Shown one piece after another: positions 2,245-18,624 of a DNA stretch of 58,886 nt. The first letter of the stretch is position 1, and each line of letters begins with the position of its first letter. The stretch lies in assembly GCA_964635125.1 (NCBI GenBank), contig CAZWMQ010000001.1, forward strand, positions 150,386-209,271, in the 5' to 3' direction. The DNA is from an uncultured Candidatus Saccharibacteria bacterium. GTDB taxonomy: Bacteria; Patescibacteriota; Minisyncoccia; Phycocordibacterales; UBA5272. The notes under the pieces were generated by a model that searched no databases, was not told where the DNA came from, and was given only the letters and a program-made list of their open reading frames with translations. Made by a program: the position numbers and the translations under genes.

Positions 2245-4680
2245 ATGCAGATGAATAAAAATAAGATTCTTAGATTAGTATTGTATGTCTGTTTAGCTGT
2301 AATACCATTTTTAGCTTTTTATGTTTCTGGATTTGGTATCGGAGCTAATTGGAATGCTATGTTTTTTCCATATATTACAGGTAAGAATTTTGCTTTTAGG
2401 ATTTTTGTAGAGATTGCTTTGGCTTGCTGGTTAATGTTAATGGTAGTTGATAAAAGTTTTCGGCCAAAGAAAAGTTTATTATTAACATTATATTCAATTT
2501 TTGTTTTTGTTTTATTGTTAGCTGATATTTTCTCTGTAAATCCAGTCAGATCTTTCTTTTCTAATTTTGAAAGAATGGAAGGGTTTATCGCCCATATTCA
2601 CCTGTATGCTTATTTTTTAATTCTAATAACCTTGTTCAAGGATAAAGCTTCTTGGGTTAAGTATAAGACTATACTTTTTATTTCTAATATTCCCGTAATT
2701 CTTTTAGCTTTATTACAATTATTAGGATTATCTGTTTTTTGGCCAATGAAATTTTTACCAGCACTTCGCGATGCTATTCATAAGTATTTTGCTCCAACTC
2801 AAGGGGGGAATCAATTGGATTCTAGTCTAGGAAATTCAACTTATTTAGCAATTTATACTATATTTTTCATTTTCTTATTATTAATTACTTATTTAGAAAA
2901 TCGCAAGAAAGAAAATGTTAAAAATTGACCTTATATTGTAATGTTAATTCTCAACTTAATTGTATTATTTTATACACAAACTAGAGGAGCTCAAGTTGGT
3001 TTTGCAATCGGAATATTTGCTACTTCAATTATAATTTATTTTGGAGGCAGAAAATTTAAAGAACTTAAAAATAAAAGGAAAATTTCTTTAGCTATTATCG
3101 TATTTGTTCTAATTAGCTATTTTAGTCTGATTATTTTCTCACATACTAATGTGGTTGCAAAATCTTCTACTTTGAACAGATTATCAAAAGTGGCTAGTTT
3201 TGCTGATCCAATATCTTTGCCTAAAAAAATATCTAAACTAACTTCTGAATTATATAATCCAAATTCTACTTATCAAGACCTTTTAGCTGTATCCGGAGAT
3301 GGAACTTTTACTTCTCGTATATTGAATATAAAAATGTCTTTAGATGGGTTTAAAGCTAGGCCAATTTTAGGGTGGGGTCAAGACAATTATTTTTATGTAT
3401 TTTCTAAATATAATGACCCAAGAATGTATGCTCAAGAGCCGTGATTCGATAGATCTCATAATGTGTTTATGGATTGGTTAATTGCGGCTGGAATTGTAGG
3501 GTTATTAGCCTATTTATCTTTATATGTAGGATCATTTTATATTATGTGGCATAAGAGATTTAAAAAAGATAATTACGACAATAGAGAATTTACGGAAAAG
3601 GCCTTACTTTCTGGATTATTAATTGCTTATTTTGTTCATAATATATTTGTCTTTGATAATATTATTTCTTATATATTGTTCTTTATAGTTTTAGCTTATA
3701 TTAGTGTTAGATTCAGTAAAGAAAAAACTCCAAAAGATCTTAAAGATTTAACTAATGAGCAAATAAAAAATAGGAAAATATTATACGGGCCAGTTATTTT
3801 GGTAGGATTAGTTTTATCTTTGTATTTCTTCAATGTTAAATATATGAAAGCAAATAAAGACATTATTAAAGGGTTGGTCCCAAATATGCAAAATCCGAGC
3901 GGACCATTAGCGGCTTTGAATGATAGTTTGGATGCTTTTAAGAGAGCAATTGCTATTGGGGGTATTGCTAAGATGGAAAGTAAAGAACAATTAGCCCAGA
4001 GTACTTTAAATTTAATTAATCAAGTTAAATCGGCTAATATATCCCTAACTGAAGAAAATAAGCCTGTGTATGATTTAATAAATAATTATATTAATACCAC
4101 TGAACAAGCTTATTCAGATGTGTTAAGTCAAAGAGTAATCCCAAGAAGTGTGGCAATTTATGCTTCCTTCTTACTAGGGATAGGGGATAGCAAAGATGCT
4201 TTGGCTTATGGTCAATTAGCACACGACTCATCACCCCATAAGCAATCAATTACTTTGACTTATATTCAATCTTTATTGGCGAATAGTAACTATACTAAAG
4301 CTGAAGAGATAGCCCAACAAATGTATAATGATGATGAGAGCTATGATGAAGCTAAGTCTATTTTAGCTTTGACCGAAGTTTATAATAAAGAATTTGATAA
4401 AGCCGAAAATCTTTTGACTAATAAAGACGGATCAGTTTCAATTGATCAAGATATAATGCAGGTGTATTTAAATTATAGTGAAGCTAATAGATTAGCTAAT
4501 ATTTTGAAGAAAAACATATCTATAAATAATCAAGACTCTAATTCAACTTTATTATTAGCGAACGTTTATTTAGTTTTAGGACAAAAGGCTAAGTCCATTC
4601 AGACTTTAGAAGATCTTAAAAAATTATTACCAGAGAAAAGCTCATTAATTGATGATTATATTAAAAAGATTCAAGCTTAA
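2245..4680 (+). CDS. O-antigen ligase (Wzy_C) family polytopic membrane protein with C-terminal TPR-like region, 811 aa
   Basis: Three track ORFs in one frame, joined through TGA at 2926-28 and 3442-44; motifs LGNSTYLA, TQTRGA, PILGWGQDNY, QEP(W)FDRSHN. Confidence 0.85.
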
Positions 4681-10285: not shown

Positions 10286-11671
10286 ATGAAAGAACTTTTT
10301 AAAAAAATAATACTTAAAATCTTAACTTGGGAAGCTAGAGTTATAATTAAAAGGTCTAAGCCGACTATTATTGCTGTAACTGGCAATTTAGGTAAGACTT
10401 CGACTAAGGATTTTATTTATGCAGCTTTAGCTAAGAATTTAAAAACTGAATTAGGAGAAGAATTAGTTTTAGCTTCGAAAAAAAGCATGAATAGTGAATT
10501 CGGGGTTCCGCTCACAATTCTCGAAATGCAAACTGCCTGGAATAATCCAATTGAGTGGTTAAAGATTATTTTCCGTGGATTTATTAAGGTTTTAGATAGA
10601 TATCATTATAAATATCTTGTTCTAGAAATTGGAGCCGATGCTCCAGATGATATTAAGAAGATTACGGAATATATTAAGCCAGATATTGCAGTTTTAACGG
10701 CTTTCGCGGAAGTCCCAGTACATATTGAATTTTTTAATAATGATAGGAATAGATTAATTAGAGAAAAGAAATATTTATTTGAAGCCTTGAAAGATGGTGG
10801 GACTTTTATTTATAACTATGATGATAAAGATTGTCAGAATATCGTAAATGATTTTAAAGATAAAAATATAATTTTGAAATCTTTCTCCCTTAAAAACCCT
10901 AAAGCCAATATTTATTTAAAAAATCATGAAGTAAATATTAAAGTTGAGAATAGATTTATTAATAAATTAATTGGAACAAAAGGTGAGGTAGCTATAGAAA
11001 ATGAAACTTATCCAATTATTTTGGATCAAGTCTTAGGTGAAGCGATATATTACAATCTAATGCCAGCACTATTAGTAGCCCAATCTTTAAAGGTTGATAT
11101 TAGTAAAGCTATTAGAGATATTGAAAGCTCTAAACGGACTAAAGGTCGTATGCATATTTTAGAAGGAATTTATAAAACTAATCTTATTGATGATACTTAT
11201 AATGCCTCACCAAAAGCACTTGAGAATGGTATTTCTTTAATTAAGAATTTAAAGATTAAAGGTAAGAAAATATTTATTTTAGGAGATATGTTAGAGTTGG
11301 GGGATTATACGAGATCTGAACATGAAAGGATTGGTGAATTAGTTGTTGGAGTGGCTGACATTTTAATTACTTCTGGAATAAGAGCTAAGATTATAGGGGA
11401 ATCAGCGATTAAAAATGGTATGAATGGAGAAAATGTTTATATAACTGATAACAGTATTGAAGCGGGCAAAGAAACTTTAAGAATAATCGAGCGAAAGATT
11501 GAAGAAGATTATAAAGAAGGTAAAAGTGAAAGTGAAGTCGGAGGAGATTTAATATTTGTGAAAGGTTCTCAAGGAGCTAGAATGGAGAAAGTGGTTAAAA
11601 TGATCTTAGCTAAGAATCATCAACCGGAAGATCACCTAGTTAGACAAGAGAAAGATTGAGAGAATAGGTAA
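10286..11671 (+). CDS. murF: UDP-MurNAc-tripeptide--D-Ala-D-Ala ligase MurF
   Basis: AVTGNLGKTSTK, DDTYNASP, LGDMLELG, VKGSQG; TGA 11657-59 read through (EKD(W)ENR) to TAA 11669-71. Confidence 0.9.
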
Positions 11672-11730
11672 AGGCTAATTTTAATTTAGGAGTATAATAT
11701 TAGCATTATTAATTATAATAATATAAAAAT

Positions 11731-12138
11731 ATGGAAGATAAAATATATAAAGTCAATAAAACTACAAAATTAGGTTTAATACTTTTAATGATACAATTTG
11801 TTTTAGGTTCAGTTGTTGGATTATGACATAAAGCTCCAAGCGAAGGTCCATCCCCAGCTTTGGCTAATTTAGCTTTTAATCTACATATAGCTGTAGCCAT
11901 CTTATTATTAATTGTAAGCATTATCTTAGTCGTTAGAGCTAGTAAGGTTAATAACCAGAAAGCCAAATCTTTTGCTTTAAGGGGATTGATTAGTGTAATT
12001 TTAGCAATAATAGGAGCAAGTTTTATATTCTGGTTTCAGCAAGGAGCGGTTTGAGGATTATTTATAATGGCAATTGGATTTCTTGGAGCAGTCGCGAATT
12101 ATGTAAAGGAATATATTGTAATTAATAGGATGAGATAG
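11731..12138 (+). CDS. Four-TM hypothetical membrane protein, 135 aa
   Basis: ATG 11731, TGA at 11824-26 and 12052-54 read through, TAG 12136-38; four hydrophobic helices. Confidence 0.7.
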
Positions 12139-12182
12139 TTATTAAACTATCAAAAAAGCTTGACCTCTTCTACATTATTTTA

Positions 12183-12350
12183 GTGATCTAATCATAACCT
12201 TTGCGCGAAATTATTTCGAGAGCCACTAATCATGCCGACCAGCGCCTCGGAGTACCTCGGCGCTCCGCCCTCGCCCCGTTTCCGCCTTTCCATGCTTTTT
12301 ATTTTTCGCGGGGGGATTCTTTTTGAAATTGTATGGGGCGGAAACGGGGC
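12183..12350 (+). repeat. Arm A: 168-bp perfect inverted repeat of 16387-16554 (attL arm)
   Basis: Base-by-base reverse complement match read from the sequence. Confidence 0.95.
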
Positions 12351-12876
12351 TCGGTCGGGCTTCTTCTAAGGAAGAAGCGATCGTCATGAAATGCAGTGGT
12401 GCTCGGGATTTCTTCGTTAGTGTTATCGTCCAGTGACCAAAGGGGATGCACCCTCGGCATCCGCCTCGGGCATTTCCGCTAGGGCTACTCGCGCCTAGAT
12501 GCCTAGGATTCCTGCTTATCCTCGCCAGTGCGCTCTGCGGAGCGCTGGCTCGGGCAGGAAACTTGTTGGGGGAAGGAAGGGTTCCTTCCCCCAGCTTCGC
12601 CTCGGTTCGTGCTCGCTACGCTCGCATTCCGCAGAGCGGAACAGGGCTCACCCCACCCGGCTCGCACAACCCCCATCCTCGTTTTCATATCCGCGTTTTG
12701 TGGTATCGCTTTCGCTGCTAGATTTCTGTATTGCAAGGTAACGGCGGCGCTCATCCTTTAGTCATGGACGCCCTAGCGGAAATGCCCGAGGCTCAAATTC
12801 TTATGTGCTTGCCCCGCGCCACCCATGCGCGCACATCCCGCCCGCAAAGGACAGGAGGGATCGCGGGCGGGGCTCC

Positions 12877-13749
12877 CTAGATAGAATCTAAAACAGTTTT
12901 CACTTCACCCATAAACTCAAATATCAAATCGTTTGAGATAATAATTCCCAAACTTTCATTCTCATCACCATTCACCATCGCAGGAATCCCAATCCTGCAT
13001 CCATACTGATCAACCGCTAACCCACCAGAGTTACCATGACTTATCTTTGCTGAAGTAAAAATTAAACCCTCATCCACAAGCAAACTACTCACAACCCCAT
13101 CTGTAATTGTTAGTGCGTATCCACCACTAATTGCAGGGTAGCCATAAATTTTCACAGGTTCTCCAAGTATTACATTTTCGTTTTTACAATACCGAGTGTC
13201 ATCATATGCAGGGAATACTTTAGGGTAATCGCCATGTGCCACACCCTCATCATCAATAAAGACATCGTGAATTTGAACAAACGCGAGATCATACTGATCG
13301 CTGATTTCAGGAATTACAATCGGATATGCTGAATAAATTTCACTTGGTGCGCCCGTGCTTGGATCAGGTAATATTACCAAGCAAACAGGGACTGCTTCCT
13401 TATCGGCAAGGACTGGAATTATGTGGGCATTTGTCAAAACAAGACCATCATCTGTCATTATTGTCCCAGAGCCGCCAGATGTATCTTCCTCTGTATTTCC
13501 CTCGCAATAAATATTCACAACAGATTTCGCAATTTCTTGATCTGTTGTAGTGGATGGTTCTATAGGAGTAAAAAGCCATACTCCAAAGATTAGAATTAAA
13601 ATTATCACACCCAAAATAACCAACTTCTTTTTTGTAAAAAAGTTTTTCTTTGGCGTCACAATATCTTTAGTCGTTGAATTATCCACTCCACAATTTGTGC
13701 AAAATTTTGTGCCCTCCTTATTTTCTTTACCGCAATGTTTGCAATACAT
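12877..13749 (-). CDS. Zinc-ribbon + TM + trypsin-like serine protease, 290 aa
   Basis: Start MYCKHCG...FCTNCG at 13749; TM; catalytic triad motifs TNAH, YDLA, GNSGG. Confidence 0.85.
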   Translation of the reverse strand: MYCKHCGKENKEGTKFCTNCGVDNSTTKDIVTPKKNFFTKKKLVILGVIILILIFGVWLFTPIEPSTTTDQEIAKSVVNIYCEGNTEEDTSGGSGTIMTDDGLVLTNAHIIPVLADKEAVPVCLVILPDPSTGAPSEIYSAYPIVIPEISDQYDLAFVQIHDVFIDDEGVAHGDYPKVFPAYDDTRYCKNENVILGEPVKIYGYPAISGGYALTITDGVVSSLLVDEGLIFTSAKISHGNSGGLAVDQYGCRIGIPAMVNGDENESLGIIISNDLIFEFMGEVKTVLDSI

Positions 13750-13751
13750 AA

Positions 13752-14216
13752 TTATTTTGGAGTGACCGCAGTGCCACAATTACCACAAAATTTGAGTTCC
13801 TTCGTAATTCCTGTTCCGCAACTGCCACAATAACTAAGATTTTCATCTGCACTTGCCAACTTTTTTGTCTCTATAACTTCAGCTTGAACAGTGTCCGGAG
13901 TACCGCCGTTTAGATGATTTAATTTTGCTTGATATTCCTCTTGTGTGATTTTTCCATCAAGTAATAACTGATTTGCTTCTGCAAGAGGTTTTATTTGTTC
14001 GGTTTGTTTGCTGTCCAAAGTTAAACCACGCTGGCATACTGGACAGCTAAGAAAATATTTTATTGAGTAGGGAAAAACTGGAATAAAAAAGAGTGTAAAC
14101 CATGTCATTATTCTAGTCAGCACCCAATAATCCTCATTGTGACAATTTGCACATAGATTTTTGAATGTAACCCCGATTTGTTTAATTGTTTGGTGCCCCC
14201 ATCCAAAAATAATCAT
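13752..14216 (-). CDS. Zinc-ribbon protein (N-terminal CxxC..FFIP..CxxC, SHOCT-like segment, C-terminal CxxC..CxxC ribbon)
   Basis: MIIFGWG..CANC..TWFTLFFIP..CPVC; LLDGKITQEEYQAKL; CGSC..FCGNCG. Confidence 0.8.
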   Translation of the reverse strand: MIIFGWGHQTIKQIGVTFKNLCANCHNEDYWVLTRIMTWFTLFFIPVFPYSIKYFLSCPVCQRGLTLDSKQTEQIKPLAEANQLLLDGKITQEEYQAKLNHLNGGTPDTVQAEVIETKKLASADENLSYCGSCGTGITKELKFCGNCGTAVTPK

Positions 14217-14221
14217 GTTAT

Positions 14222-14614
14222 TTAAAAGAGTTTTTTAAACTCATCTCGCCATATTGGTTTTTGGGCGAGTGCTATATATAAAACTGTTAATTTGATCAAG
14301 CGAAGTACAACTACAAAAATTACTATTGCAAGAACTGAATACCAGAATGCTGCGCCCGTAGTGTCTTCATATCCTCCATAATAACTCCAACTTGTGCTAT
14401 TTACTGACCAAACGACGGGTACAATCCAAAGAATCTGTATGTATAAAAATATGTATGCAACCTTTAGCAAACGATGCCACCATCGTTCATCAAGATTTTT
14501 TACAGGAGTTTTATTTATTCTTGATACAGTTGGAGAGGACACGATAGGATGACCGCATTTGGTGCAAAATTTATGAGTCCCATCATTTTTATTTCCACAG
14601 TTTTCGCAGTACAT
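14222..14614 (-). CDS. Zinc-ribbon + two-TM membrane protein
   Basis: MYCENCG...FCTKCG followed by two hydrophobic helices. Confidence 0.8.
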   Translation of the reverse strand: MYCENCGNKNDGTHKFCTKCGHPIVSSPTVSRINKTPVKNLDERWWHRLLKVAYIFLYIQILWIVPVVWSVNSTSWSYYGGYEDTTGAAFWYSVLAIVIFVVVLRLIKLTVLYIALAQKPIWRDEFKKLF

Positions 14615-14615
14615 A

Positions 14616-15521
14616 TTAATTATTGTTTATATAATCATAAACTTCCTGTGGCACTTCCATGCCTCCCGCTATAGCTTGTCTAAGATAAATTTTTGCATTA
14701 ACCGGATCTTCTTTTTGTGCGTACGAAAGTCCTAAGAAATACGCATAGACAGGTTCTCTACTAATATCTAAAGATTTCAGTAATGAAATCGTTTGGCTAT
14801 AGTTTTCATTAAAGTAATACGCAAGAGCAAGATTCTTTTTTGAGACATTGTCATTTTGGAGCTGATTTGCTTTTTGTGCGGAACTTAAAGCTTTAGTGTA
14901 GTCGGTGTATTGAGGATGAGCATCCTGCAAATCCATATAAAACAGCGCTAGTGAATTATTCACTTGAAAATCCTCAGAGTCTTTTGCATACGCCTTATTG
15001 TAGGAAATTAAAGCTGCATTATATTTACCTTCTAGCTCCGCAATCTCTCCAGAAATTAGGAAATAATCAACGGAATCTGTGGTTGTCAATGCAAGTGCCT
15101 CTTTAAAAGTATTTAGTGCTAAATCGTCTTTTCCCTCATGCGAATAAGCATAGGCTAGATTTTTTAAGCTGTTTATTTTGTTTGTGCTTGTTATTGCATC
15201 TTGTGAAGCCTGTTGAAATTGCGAGATTGCTTGATCACTATTTCCTGAATTGTAAGCATCCAAGGCCTTATTATTTGTTTCGACAGCAGTATTATCAACA
15301 GAGTTGATTGCCCCGAAGATAATTTTGACCAAAATCAACCCGCCAACAATTACAACAACAGCAACAGTTTTTATAATTCTACCTGTTGTCCAGGGTTCTT
15401 TAGGGATTGGAGGACGGACAGGCGGTGGAGGTGTTGTTTGGGTGACTGAAAATGCGGTTCCGCAATTAGTACAGAATTTTTTTGTGCCATCTGATTCAGT
15501 TCCGCAATTTTTACAAAACAT
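14616..15521 (-). CDS. Zinc-ribbon + Pro-rich linker + TM + TPR protein
   Basis: MFCKNCG...FCTNCG, TPPPPVRPP, TM, helical repeats (ALDAYNSGNSDQAISQFQQA, NLAYAY, ALISYNKA). Confidence 0.8.
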   Translation of the reverse strand: MFCKNCGTESDGTKKFCTNCGTAFSVTQTTPPPPVRPPIPKEPWTTGRIIKTVAVVVIVGGLILVKIIFGAINSVDNTAVETNNKALDAYNSGNSDQAISQFQQASQDAITSTNKINSLKNLAYAYSHEGKDDLALNTFKEALALTTTDSVDYFLISGEIAELEGKYNAALISYNKAYAKDSEDFQVNNSLALFYMDLQDAHPQYTDYTKALSSAQKANQLQNDNVSKKNLALAYYFNENYSQTISLLKSLDISREPVYAYFLGLSYAQKEDPVNAKIYLRQAIAGGMEVPQEVYDYINNN

Positions 15522-16080
15522 ATTTTTCTATTGATTGACGCAAACGATCGACCTCCTTTTGACTCTTTTGGAGGACTAATTTTTGCTCACCTTGAGTCAA
15601 GGTAAATTTGTTTTTTCCAAACTCAATTTTACCTTTTAATTCGTGTAGTGGTATTTTAAGAAAAACATCATTTACCCAGTGATTTGATGTGAGCTTGCCG
15701 TCAACCACCCACGCAGATCGATACCACTTACGCTTCTTTGTGTCGTTAGAACCACCAATTGCCACTCCAATCGCCATGCCAATAATATTTGCAATTACAA
15801 GACCGATGAAAAATCCCCACGCAGCACCACTGTATGAAGGTAATTTGATTGCATAAAGATTATCTTTATCAACCATAACATCCATGTATGGAAGAGAAAC
15901 AACAGCCCAAACTTTTTTACGACGCCAATCTTCACTATAAAAATCTGCTGTACCAAAAGACACAGAATCTTGTGTCTTAGGGGATGTTTTAATTTCTGAA
16001 GTGCCAGCTGTTTTACGACCGCAGTTTTGGCAAAATTGAGCATCCTTTTCTAGTTTTGTACCACAGTGTTCGCAAAACAT
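15511..16080 (-). CDS. Zinc-ribbon + glycine-rich TM protein
   Basis: MFCEHCG...FCQNCG; GAAWGFFIGLVIANIIGMAIGVAIGG. Confidence 0.8.
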   Translation of the reverse strand: MFCEHCGTKLEKDAQFCQNCGRKTAGTSEIKTSPKTQDSVSFGTADFYSEDWRRKKVWAVVSLPYMDVMVDKDNLYAIKLPSYSGAAWGFFIGLVIANIIGMAIGVAIGGSNDTKKRKWYRSAWVVDGKLTSNHWVNDVFLKIPLHELKGKIEFGKNKFTLTQGEQKLVLQKSQKEVDRLRQSIEKYVL

Positions 16081-16084
16081 AAAT

Positions 16085-16306
16085 TTATTTTATGAAATAG
16101 TCGATGCTTTTATTATAAATTTTAGCAAAGTTTTGAAGCTCGACTACATCTACTCTTTGCTGTCCCGATTCAACATTAGAAATATGCGATTGCGGACGCC
16201 TTAATTTCTTTGCCACTTCGGTTTGAGTCAATCCTGCCTCGAGTCGAGCTTTCCGTAATCGCTCGACAAAATAGGCATATTCCTTTGTTTGTCTTGACCT
16301 AGTCAT
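16085..16306 (-). CDS. XRE-family helix-turn-helix regulator
   Basis: LRKARLEAGLTQTEVAKKL..PQSHISNVESGQQR. Confidence 0.9.
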   Translation of the reverse strand: MTRSRQTKEYAYFVERLRKARLEAGLTQTEVAKKLRRPQSHISNVESGQQRVDVVELQNFAKIYNKSIDYFIK

Positions 16307-16386
16307 ATACTAACATTATCTATCCAAGAATTCAATATCCAAACTTTAGATATTGTGATAAACTAGATTTTGAAGACTTAGCCCTC

Positions 16387-16554
16387 GCCCCGTTTCCGCC
16401 CCATACAATTTCAAAAAGAATCCCCCCGCGAAAAATAAAAAGCATGGAAAGGCGGAAACGGGGCGAGGGCGGAGCGCCGAGGTACTCCGAGGCGCTGGTC
16501 GGCATGATTAGTGGCTCTCGAAATAATTTCGCGCAAAGGTTATGATTAGATCAC
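16387..16554 (-). repeat. Arm A' (inverted copy of 12183-12350)
   Basis: Perfect reverse complement; ends in TCAC 16551-54. Confidence 0.95.
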
Positions 16555-16665
16555 ATTCAGAAACTTCTCGGTCGGAAAGACCAAAATGGGCGCGCGCCGA
16601 AGGCGCGCTGTGTGGCGTGAATGCGAACTCTGCCTTGCGAATGCGGGCGAAATCGGAGGGCGGGC
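16551..16665 (+). repeat. Arm B: 115-bp perfect inverted repeat of 18135-18249
   Basis: Base-by-base reverse complement; shares TCAC core with arm A'. Confidence 0.95.
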
Positions 16666-16720
16666 TGAAAGCAAGAAATGAGATCTTAGTAGTTTCTCGT
16701 TTTGAATCCAAAATCTATTT

Positions 16721-18307
16721 ATGAACAAACCAAAATATTTTCTCTATGCTCGCAAGAGCACCGAAGATGATGATAAGCAAGTGATGTCGATTGAGGCACA
16801 GCTTTTTGAGCTTCGTGAATTTGCGAGCAGAGAAAATCTTGAAATTCTTGAGGAATTTCAAGAGTCGAAAAGCGCAAAGAGTCCGGGACGAGAAGTGTTC
16901 GGCGAAATGATGATGCGCATTGAAAAAATGAATGGAGTTGGTATTCTCGCGTGGCATCCTGACCGCTTGGCGAGAAATAGCATAGACGGAGGGCGCATCA
17001 TTTACGCCGTCGACACTTCAAAAATCGTCTCTTTGCGTTTTCCGACATTTTGGTTTGAACCGACACCGCAGGGGCTCTTTATGTTGCAAGTGGCGTTCGG
17101 CCAATCGAAATATTATTCCGACAATTTGAAACAAAATGTGGAGCGAGGTATGCGCCAAAAATTGCGCCGAGGAGAATGGCTTACAAAAGCTCCTTTCGGG
17201 TATGTGAATAATCCGCGAACGAGGAATATCGAACCTGATCCGGTGAAATCAAAGATTATCGTTCGCGCGTATGAACAATACGCAAAAGGAACACATACCC
17301 TCATTTCGCTGGCACAATTTTTGGCTGACCACGGTGTGACTACGAAGGCCGGAACGCCACTTGGCAAAGCTTCCGTGAAAAGAATGCTGACCAATCGTGC
17401 CTATTTGGGATTTACCAAGCATCGCGACGAGTATTTCACCGGAAGCTTTGCGCCAATTCTTTCTCCGACACTATTTGAAGCTGTGCAAAAGCAACTTTCT
17501 GAGCGAGCGCATCCAAGACATACGAAACAAGCACACGATTTTCCGTTTACCGGACTTTTTCGTTGTGGCGAGTGTGGGAGCATGATCACTGCACAATGGG
17601 CGACTGGCAAGTGCGGTGGGCGGTATCGGTATTATCGGTGCACGAAAAAGAACGGCGTGTGCTTGCAAAAGTATTTACAGGAAGATGCGCTCGCTCTCCA
17701 AGTAAAGGAACAGCTTCAATCAGTGTCGCTTCCCGAAGCGTGGGCGGAATATATGCTCAAAAAAGTAGAGGATTTTGAGCATGACGAAAAGAACGCTTCG
17801 GGAAGTCGTCTCGAACAGATGAAGAATGACCTCAAGAAGCTTGAAGCGAAGCTCGATGCGCTCGTTGATTTGTATCTAAATGGTGATATTGAGCGCGAGG
17901 CGTATCTCGCAAAGAAAGATGGTTTAATACGCCAAAAAATCTCGCTTCAAGCAAAATCTTCATCTGCCCGAGCCGAGAGAAAGAATTGGGTCGAACCCCT
18001 GCGGAAGTGGATTTTGGATTCAAAACACGCGGGGTTTCTGGCAAGCAGTACAAAGTACGCCGAAATGCGCGACTTTGTCCGTTCCTTCGGAACGAACCCC
18101 GCGCTTTTAAACAAAACTATTTCGATCTCATTTTGCCCGCCCTCCGATTTCGCCCGCATTCGCAAGGCAGAGTTCGCATTCACGCCACACAGCGCGCCTT
18201 CGGCGCGCGCCCATTTTGGTCTTTCCGACCGAGAAGTTTCTGAATGTGACCTTACCGGGAATCGAACCCGGATTACCGGCTTGAGAAGCCGATGTCCTAA
18301 CCGTTAG
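16721..18307 (+). CDS. Large serine recombinase (resolvase + recombinase + zinc ribbon + coiled coil)
   Basis: YARKSTE catalytic motif, AWHPDRLARN, KAPFGY, CGECG..RYRYYRC; last about 20 codons run antisense through tRNA-Glu. Confidence 0.95.
   Translation: MNKPKYFLYARKSTEDDDKQVMSIEAQLFELREFASRENLEILEEFQESKSAKSPGREVFGEMMMRIEKMNGVGILAWHPDRLARNSIDGGRIIYAVDTSKIVSLRFPTFWFEPTPQGLFMLQVAFGQSKYYSDNLKQNVERGMRQKLRRGEWLTKAPFGYVNNPRTRNIEPDPVKSKIIVRAYEQYAKGTHTLISLAQFLADHGVTTKAGTPLGKASVKRMLTNRAYLGFTKHRDEYFTGSFAPILSPTLFEAVQKQLSERAHPRHTKQAHDFPFTGLFRCGECGSMITAQWATGKCGGRYRYYRCTKKNGVCLQKYLQEDALALQVKEQLQSVSLPEAWAEYMLKKVEDFEHDEKNASGSRLEQMKNDLKKLEAKLDALVDLYLNGDIEREAYLAKKDGLIRQKISLQAKSSSARAERKNWVEPLRKWILDSKHAGFLASSTKYAEMRDFVRSFGTNPALLNKTISISFCPPSDFARIRKAEFAFTPHSAPSARAHFGLSDREVSECDLTGNRTRITGLRSRCPNR
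18135..18249 (-). repeat. Arm B' (attR arm, within recombinase 3' end)
   Basis: Reverse complement of 16551-16665, abutting the tRNA-Glu 3' end at GTGA. Confidence 0.95.
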
Positions 18308-18318
18308 ACGATAAGGCC
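18247..18318 (-). tRNA. tRNA-Glu(CTC), integration target
   Basis: GGCCTTA/TAAGGTC acceptor, TCGGC-TTCTCAA-GCCGG anticodon arm, GGTTCGATTCC. Confidence 0.95.
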
Positions 18319-18624
18319 GTTCAGGTTGCAAGTTTCAAGCTTCAAGTTATAAGAAATTAAAGCTATTTTGTATAAAACCCGAGCTAACAGCTCAATATCT
18401 TTAGATTTTGAGATTTTATAATTTTATCACATTTTTAGTCTTTTATCAAAAACCCTTATAAAATAAGCTTATTTTAATCATATTATATTGACAAAATTAA
18501 GATAAAGTTGTATAACTATTGACTTTTAGGATGAAATTTGCTAAGATATAAGAGTTGAGCAATAAGCTCATTTTTTGTTTGCCAATTTCTGTATTTGATA
18601 GTTCGCGGAGCTAAACCGCATATT

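Follow-up and report, generated by a model that had tools for sequence, protein, structure and literature searches.

Where does a gene end when its last codons lie across the point at which the DNA is exchanged? This question is raised by a gene for a large serine recombinase (LSR) in a 58,886-nucleotide (nt) stretch of contig CAZWMQ010000001.1 from an uncultured Candidatus Saccharibacteria bacterium (hereafter the window), whose coding sequence runs out of an integrative element and into the antisense strand of a tRNA-Glu gene. A preliminary description, made from the letters of the window alone, had noticed a second, differently ending copy of the gene's 3′ end on the opposite strand; it proposed that the state of the DNA sets the C-terminal tail and that inversion could give a control of directionality or expression. 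We find that the last 12 to 17 residues of the LSR are set by the DNA state and that the "second C-terminus" at 16508–16711 is one side of a kept, inverted attP attachment site, not a gene end in use. As to what the swap of tails does, we favor, with a rough probability of 0.6, a passenger effect of overprinting the end of the gene on a P arm and a hairpin, as opposed to a device that controls directionality.

The integrative element occupies 12183–18245 (6,063 bp) at the 3′ end of tRNA-Glu(CUC) and is organized by two pairs of inverted repeats. The X/X′ pair (12183–12350 versus 16387–16554) is 168 nt long and 100% complementary, the Y′/Y pair (16548–16665 versus 18135–18252) is 118 nt long and 99% complementary, and where one pair meets the other there is a short core. 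Three junctions can be read: host-GTGA-X at 12183, an inverted Y-GTGA-X at 16551, and Y-GTGA-tRNA at 18246. In serine-integrase terms these are attL (B-P′), a complete inverted attP (P-P′), and attR (P-B′), so that the layout of the element is attL, cargo, inverted attP, LSR, attR; about 40 related loci at tRNA and tmRNA genes share it. Its features, in window coordinates, are as follows.

12183..12350, plus strand: arm X on the attL side, the left end of the element, with core GTGA at 12183–12186, a P′ half-site with a T-arm-like CGAA, and hairpins.
12351..16386, minus strand: cargo segment N, described from the open reading frame (ORF) list, Pfam, GC content, and Rfam.
16387..16665, minus strand: intact inverted attP (Y-core-X), composed of X′ (16387–16554), core TCAC (16551–16554), and Y′ (16548–16665), adjoining the 5′ side of the LSR gene.
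16508..16711, minus strand: 67-codon open frame with a P-type C-terminus, seen by translation and tblastn, with no Pfam match.
16590..16608, minus strand: terminator-like hairpin in Y′ that faces leftward, out of the recombinase cassette, with a GCGCGCC stem and a TTCG loop, then CCATTTTGG.
16721..18307, plus strand: coding sequence of the LSR, 528 amino acids (aa), with Pfam Resolvase, Recombinase, and Zn_ribbon_recom matches.
18135..18252, plus strand: arm Y, in which the last 37 element-encoded LSR codons are the P half-site, plus the core.
18192..18210, plus strand: terminator-like hairpin within the LSR ORF, about 40 nt 5′ of the core, coding for "APSAR".
18246..18249, plus strand: core GTGA, common to all three sites and to the empty attB, which holds the crossover dinucleotide.
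18246..18318, minus strand: tRNA-Glu(CUC), with a B′ half-site made up of its acceptor 3′ strand and its T-arm (ARAGORN, ctc; Rfam, 63.8 bits).

The product of 16721..18307 is an integrase-type large serine recombinase. A Resolvase domain (PF00239, residues 7–153, E 7.5e-22) is followed by a Recombinase domain (PF07508) at residues 174–262 and a zinc ribbon (PF13408) at 275–332, and all 45 homologues keep residues R11, S13, R82, and R85. Long helices at 339–386 and 392–422 in the predicted model fit a coiled-coil. The 528-aa protein ends ...SECDLTGNRTRITGLRSRCPNR*, and the core GTGA lies at codons 509–510; residues 1–511 are encoded by the element, and the 17 codons for residues 512–528 come from the tRNA antisense strand. 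Altogether, the final 62 nt of the coding sequence are antisense to tRNA-Glu, and the statements of the preliminary description about this crossing, which it had put at about 60 nt, all hold.

The minus-strand ORF at 16508..16711 (67 aa, ending ...SECDLIITFARNYFESH*) had likewise been correctly read as the same lead-in with another tail. It shares 39 identical residues with LSR residues 473–511 (93% by tblastn over 469–511), after which the alternative end ...SECDL-IITFARNYFESH replaces TGNRTRITGLRSRCPNR. Because no recombinase body lies upstream of this frame, it is a virtual gene end and not a gene. The proposal that the DNA state sets the tail is borne out by the position of the crossover, with the GTGA inside the ORF and the stop codon outside the element, and by homologues that carry either type of tail; an attP junction is where the alternative tail would be expected. 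At the attR junction the tail has 17 residues, giving the protein of 528 aa, and at the attP junction it has 12 residues, giving one of 523 aa. The tails end ...CPNR and ...FESH, and by eye neither resembles an ssrA-type ...AA tag. The P-type tail would arise in three ways: after excision, after integration via the other attP of the excised circle, or after inversion of the recombinase cassette between the 118-bp arms. A weak promoter-like match (TCGAAA-17-TATGAT at 16518–16546) reads from P′ through the core toward the LSR gene, so that the internal attP might serve as promoter and operator as well.

Several lines of evidence bear on whether the insertion and its repeats are real. The element stands out as an island of GC content, at 0.36–0.50 from 12.2 to 18.25 kb versus about 0.28 in the flanks. 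An empty-site joint of 12182 to 18246, with 4 letters that fit either side, was found in an independent soil metagenome run (X6), although this joint rests on one contig at depth 2 with a 26-nt side and is weak alone. Nine genomes of the same genus have tRNA-Glu followed by the same right-hand gene as the window. In seven of the nine, the tRNA 3′ end reads AT-rich DNA|GTGACC; the other two read |TGGTGACC at the called tRNA end, which is the same site called two bases longer. Six of the nine have murF 0.4–1.2 kb from tRNA-Glu within the fetched stretch, with no element between. In the source run, the 115-nt unitig of the Y arm has a depth of 35.9 versus 16–18 in the flanks, and this doubling indicates that the repeat is physical. 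The element is present in one copy in its 0.55-Mb genome.

The contig-level check covered four runs, in which only the empty attB joint was informative: because the attP junction is always present internally and no new junction is made, contigs cannot show inversion of a cassette or a circle. The stretch does not occur in any RNA run. Near-identical copies of the element and its flanks (12000–18500; 57–80% of sampled words) also occur in other studies' wetland and soil metagenomes, besides the wastewater source. An Rfam search of both strands over 10–21 kb, at E up to 1, returned two tRNAs only, leaving the attachment-site arms and the GC-rich block described below without a match.

Relatives of the LSR were searched for in 401 sampled genomes of the phylum at E ≤ 1e-90, and about 50 loci were oriented on the LSR and scored. 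Relatives occur in 68 of the 401 genomes, as well as in many metagenome contigs, under source names that include Taylor-, Magasanik- and Yonathbacteria, Paceibacterota, and Minisyncoccia. Of the approximately 50 loci, 44 carry the 3′ end of the LSR gene a second time, in inverted form (45–160 nt, mostly 95–100% identical) and 0–175 nt upstream of the start codon, and in about 40 loci an attP junction upstream of the LSR has a P′-type arm that carries CGAAC 18–20 nt from the core. The preliminary description had suggested a survey for recombinase C-termini translated from antisense tRNA; 37 loci have an antisense tRNA or transfer-messenger RNA (tmRNA) at the LSR 3′ end. The targets comprise Glu, Ala, Ser, Val, Thr, Gln, Arg, Pro, Phe, Lys, and Ile tRNAs as well as tmRNA. 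A second repeat pair, enclosing 1–9 kb of cargo, is present in all five loci with enough flanking sequence, and the contigs of many relatives break exactly where the X repeat would start.

In 40 of 41 loci the LSR frame meets its stop codon only past the repeat boundary; in the remaining one, L057, the stop falls at the boundary itself. Through the Y arm, whose sequence is highly variable across loci, the LSR frame is free of stops in 43 of 45 loci, whereas the other two frames are open in 14 and 9 of 45. That the LSR frame stays open through so variable an arm indicates that translation to the core is selected, with the tail supplied by the neighboring DNA.

Individual loci show variations on this arrangement. 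The member at L034 (G070:C4, 1790–2190) sits at a tmRNA 3′ end and takes its tail from the tmRNA antisense strand. A minimal relative, L024 (G078:C10, 12800–12987), has a cargo of about 14 nt, so that its two P′ arms form a 56-nt palindrome beside the cassette; next to its 3′ junction is a degenerate T-arm-like sequence at which ARAGORN called no tRNA. At L037 (8376–8625) and L044 (3022–3068), the LSR 3′ end joins a second P′-type arm that is unlike the locus's own upstream attP arm, for which tandem or nested elements, a free circle, or an exchange of cassettes between lineages at the core are possible origins. The genome of the window also encodes a second, shorter serine recombinase (G000:C2:28664-29734), 34% identical over residues 3–347, and the subfamily of this shorter protein (about 440–470 aa) is common in the relatives. 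Scans of IMG/VR with the LSR protein and with the 45-sequence alignment gave one 40%-identical match, on a 4.6-kb contig, and did not recover a circular form; this single match gives no sign that the family is viral.

Natural homologues show both types of tail. The 120 closest cluster representatives (66–95% identity) divide into 90 with a tRNA-antisense tail, 9 with a P-type tail such as LIVSFARTYFQQNSD or LILTFARTFFEGQ, and 21 that are truncated or of another kind. The preliminary description predicted that a flipped cassette would lie downstream of the tRNA and be transcribed in the same direction, and this minority arrangement exists. In L039, a tRNA-Ile in sense orientation is followed by a diverged arm and then by an LSR that ends in a P-type tail; with no more than 20 nt in common between the arms of this locus, the arrangement is not an assembly choice. 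L069 has the same orientation at a tRNA-Ala, but its arms are 99% identical and k-mer-length, such that an assembler could mis-thread them, and the locus is ambiguous. Three further loci with P-type tails are less informative: L036 (GCA_003455555.1, DMQX01000045.1; Taylorbacteria) has an NN join at 3004–3005, at the core beside tRNA-Glu, that interrupts a cargo ORF and makes the locus unusable for telling its state, being probably a scaffolding join across the repeat, and the contigs of L040 and L041 begin inside the upstream arm.

Does the tail matter to the protein? In the passenger reading that we favor, the last 40 or so codons would be overprinted on nucleic-acid signals, namely the outward-facing hairpin and the P half-site, and what counts would probably be that translation reaches the core, not which residues come after it. 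The tails themselves suggest as much. Those of tRNA type vary with the tRNA, from 1–2 residues (L049, L051, L066) up to about 60 (L067), and with its stop codon at the boundary, L057 makes the same protein in both states. P-type tails do share a motif, FAR(T/N)(Y/F)F, but its conservation can be traced to the DNA: the P′ arm holds a GCNCGAAC-T-rich box 18–20 nt from the core, and every P′ arm that was read encodes the Arg of the motif by CGA. In B′, the tRNA T-arm TCGAACC lies 13–15 nt from the core. From these sequences we infer that the CGAAC box of P′ mimics the T-arm recognized in B′. The offset between the P′ and B′ boxes is 4–6 nt (mode 5) in 21 of 22 loci; work on the Listeria integrase reportedly found a 5-bp difference in half-site spacing. 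The structure of the phiC31 integrase (10.1101/2025.05.02.651858) gives the footprints of the domains and a spacing rule for attP and attB half-sites that the P′/B′ offset matches.

The hairpin points in the same direction. The "APSAR" codons coincide with the GC hairpin at 18192–18210, which is followed by a T-rich run, and at either end of the cassette a terminator-like structure of this kind faces outward. Relatives retain the hairpin even when its codons spell another peptide (APAAR, APQAR, LARKRA, AAASRPR), which places the constraint on the nucleic acid. In an AlphaFold2 model built with 45 homologues, residues 458–528 have predicted local distance difference test (pLDDT) values of 39–45.

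Certain observations weigh against so simple an account. Some 40 variable codons are held open in 43 of 45 loci, which a pure passenger model does not explain; some selection must act on translation as far as the core or on the C-terminal peptide. In phage Mx8, a comparable exchange of tails changes the behavior of the integrase (PMC6070905). The preliminary description saw no separate gene for a recombination directionality factor, and the relative L031 (2.8 kb, with one 260-aa cargo gene) is consistent with this; L031 leaves no room for such a factor, so that the passenger reading does not account for directionality. Finally, low pLDDT from an alignment of 45 sequences is weak evidence for disorder. 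Even so, the features of the tails and of the hairpin do not support a regulatory role for the tail, and control of directionality or stability by the tail appears doubtful on the sequences and the predicted model.

Such a role is nevertheless what the first alternative holds, namely that the tail swap is a working switch in which the tRNA-encoded and P′-encoded tails alter directionality or stability and so replace a directionality factor. It can draw on the ORF that crosses the core in 40 of 41 loci with its frame held open, on the natural occurrence of both forms of tail, on minimal elements such as L031 with no obvious factor gene, and on the precedent of the Mx8 IntP and IntX proteins; moreover, acidic residues at the extreme C-terminus of phiC31 integrase contact its directionality factor (10.1101/2025.05.02.651858). 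A switch of this sort is hard to reconcile, however, with tRNA-type tails that differ wholly between targets and range from 1 to about 60 aa, with the single protein that L057 makes for both states, with a P-type conservation already accounted for by the CGAAC DNA box, and with the low confidence of the prediction for the tail region. We consider it unlikely.

A related proposal would assign the switch to the cassette as a whole, such that the recombinase cassette would be a self-contained orientation switch and, together with the permanently available internal attP, would take the place of a directionality factor. The 118-bp arms would then serve as ends that terminate in P half-sites and carry outward-facing terminators. 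In its present orientation, the LSR gene would be convergent with tRNA-Glu, exposed to antisense RNA from read-through of the tRNA, and equipped with the tRNA-encoded tail; once flipped, or after integration through the second attP, it would be transcribed from the tRNA promoter and acquire the P′-encoded tail. Elements could also trade cargo and recombinase cassettes at the cores. We regard this proposal as rather improbable. On paper, if the internal attP recombined with attL or attR, the cargo or the recombinase cassette would merely be inverted and the types of junction would stay unchanged, and an excised circle would carry two inverted attP sites and could integrate in either of two orientations. 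A folded, single-stranded (dumbbell) attP intermediate was also considered and rejected, since on paper double-strand exchange would leave the chromosome with two hairpin ends.

It is also conceivable, though we rate it as quite improbable, that the tails are seldom made at all, because the hairpin and T-run at 18192–18220 end most transcripts about 30 nt before the core; stop-less messages would then keep the protein scarce (for example through trans-translation), whatever lies past the core. This would account for a terminator-like site inside the ORF that faces outward at both cassette ends and for the conservation of the hairpin at the nucleic-acid level in the close subfamily. Yet the T-runs are weak, a crude scan found sense-strand sites in 19 of 44 loci versus 15 of 44 on the antisense strand, a translating ribosome is expected to suppress an intragenic terminator, and the frame stays open past the hairpin.

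The idea in the preliminary description that the copy at 16508–16711 is the eroded 3′ end of an older sibling recombinase fares much worse. The match that prompted it does exist, resuming for 10 nt past an indel (AAATGAGATC at 16676–16685 versus its complement at 18124–18133). However, the copy is 99–100% identical to the gene's own end over 115–118 nt (95–100% in most loci), has one and the same end point in about 40 independent elements, and always joins a P′ arm to complete an attP, and the adjoining 10-nt insertion recurs in the window and in L036, L039, L040, and L041. The upstream copy is thus conserved as a part of the element, the inverted attP, and a sibling relic is highly improbable. 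As for the inverted repeats being an assembly artefact of mixed integrated and excised forms, for which the NN join exactly at the core of the public relative L036 might speak, the doubled unitig depth in the source run, the recurrence of the architecture in dozens of assemblies from different assemblers, including closed or near-closed genomes, and the few percent by which the arms of some loci differ make it scarcely credible.

Beyond the recombinase, the cargo genes of the element (12877–16306) all lie on the minus strand. The set is an unusual one: a trypsin-like protease whose N-terminus is a zinc ribbon, four further proteins in which an opening zinc ribbon precedes membrane or TPR segments, and, beside the internal attP, a 73-aa HTH_3 protein. 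At the end of the cargo is a GC-rich (about 0.5–0.6) non-coding block, 12351–12876, with nested hairpins and a perfect 23-bp inverted repeat (12463–12485 and 12770–12792). The flanking host genes at 10286–12138 need TGA as a sense codon, once in murF and twice in a 135-aa membrane protein (11731–12138); the LSR and six listed cargo ORFs are open under the standard bacterial code.

A rewritten integrase end is the rule in this family, which is present in about one-sixth of the sampled genomes of a phylum with ultra-small genomes. Two points bear on the mining of serine integrases for genome engineering: proteins of this family in databases carry host-derived C-termini, and the inverted copy upstream of the gene shows the native attP directly. 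If it were true that the tail or the orientation of the cassette controls directionality, the family would offer a reversible serine integrase that needs no factor.

Comparison with known systems shows which parts of this arrangement have precedents. In the integration-dependent immunity of mycobacteriophages, where integration removes or adds a C-terminal degradation tag, attP lies in the repressor gene and not in the integrase gene. TnpX and TndX, the large serine recombinases of Tn4451 and Tn5397, need no separate directionality factor to excise and insert their elements and use a GA dinucleotide, which the core GTGA of the element also contains; those transposons, in contrast, lack both tRNA specificity and a second, internal site, and their ORF does not cross the joint. 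Hin is likewise a serine recombinase whose gene lies between inverted repeats, and in the element, too, one orientation would put the gene under an outside promoter. Hin and Gin are, however, small invertases with 26-bp sites and an enhancer, whereas the gene here is of the integrase type and its 110–160-bp repeats end in attachment half-sites. The predicted circle would resemble the yeast 2-micron plasmid in having two inverted recombination sites (FRT in the plasmid) and hence two invertible segments; the plasmid, though, uses the tyrosine recombinase Flp for copy-number amplification, and no replication genes are seen in the element.

With the canonical large serine integrases of Listeria A118/LI, phiC31, and Bxb1, the LSR shares the Resolvase, Recombinase, zinc ribbon, and coiled-coil parts. 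As in those integrases, the sites are short and lack symmetry about a central dinucleotide, with the distal motif about 5 bp further out in attP. The canonical genes, in contrast, stop before a single attP, whereas the genes of this family cross the core and their elements keep an internal inverted attP, and the at least 11 tRNA species and tmRNA that they target, with a P′ arm that imitates the T-arm, also set them apart. According to the 2014 Islander paper (PMC4383910), no serine integrase was known to target tRNA genes.

The nearest parallels in gene organization come from tyrosine recombinases. The Mx8 IntP/IntX system likewise places the crossover inside the recombinase ORF, replaces the C-terminus, and targets a tRNA 3′ end (PMC6070905, PMC4383910), yet it has no internal inverted attP or repeat-flanked cassette, and the changed behavior of its protein was shown by experiment. 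In SSV-type archaeal integrases, attP also lies within the ORF and the DNA state changes the product (PMC7253208), but there the gene is split and inactivated; here only the last 12 to 17 residues change, and the catalytic body stays intact. In the literature that we searched, we met no description of such enzymes inserted at tRNA genes of these bacteria, nor of serine recombinase genes with a copy of their own 3′ end on the flank. An integrase end rewritten by integration is thus known for tyrosine recombinases such as those of Mx8 and SSV, and in the same literature we found no such description for a serine integrase. The LSR element described here combines a tRNA 3′-end target, an ORF spanning the crossover, and an internal inverted attP.

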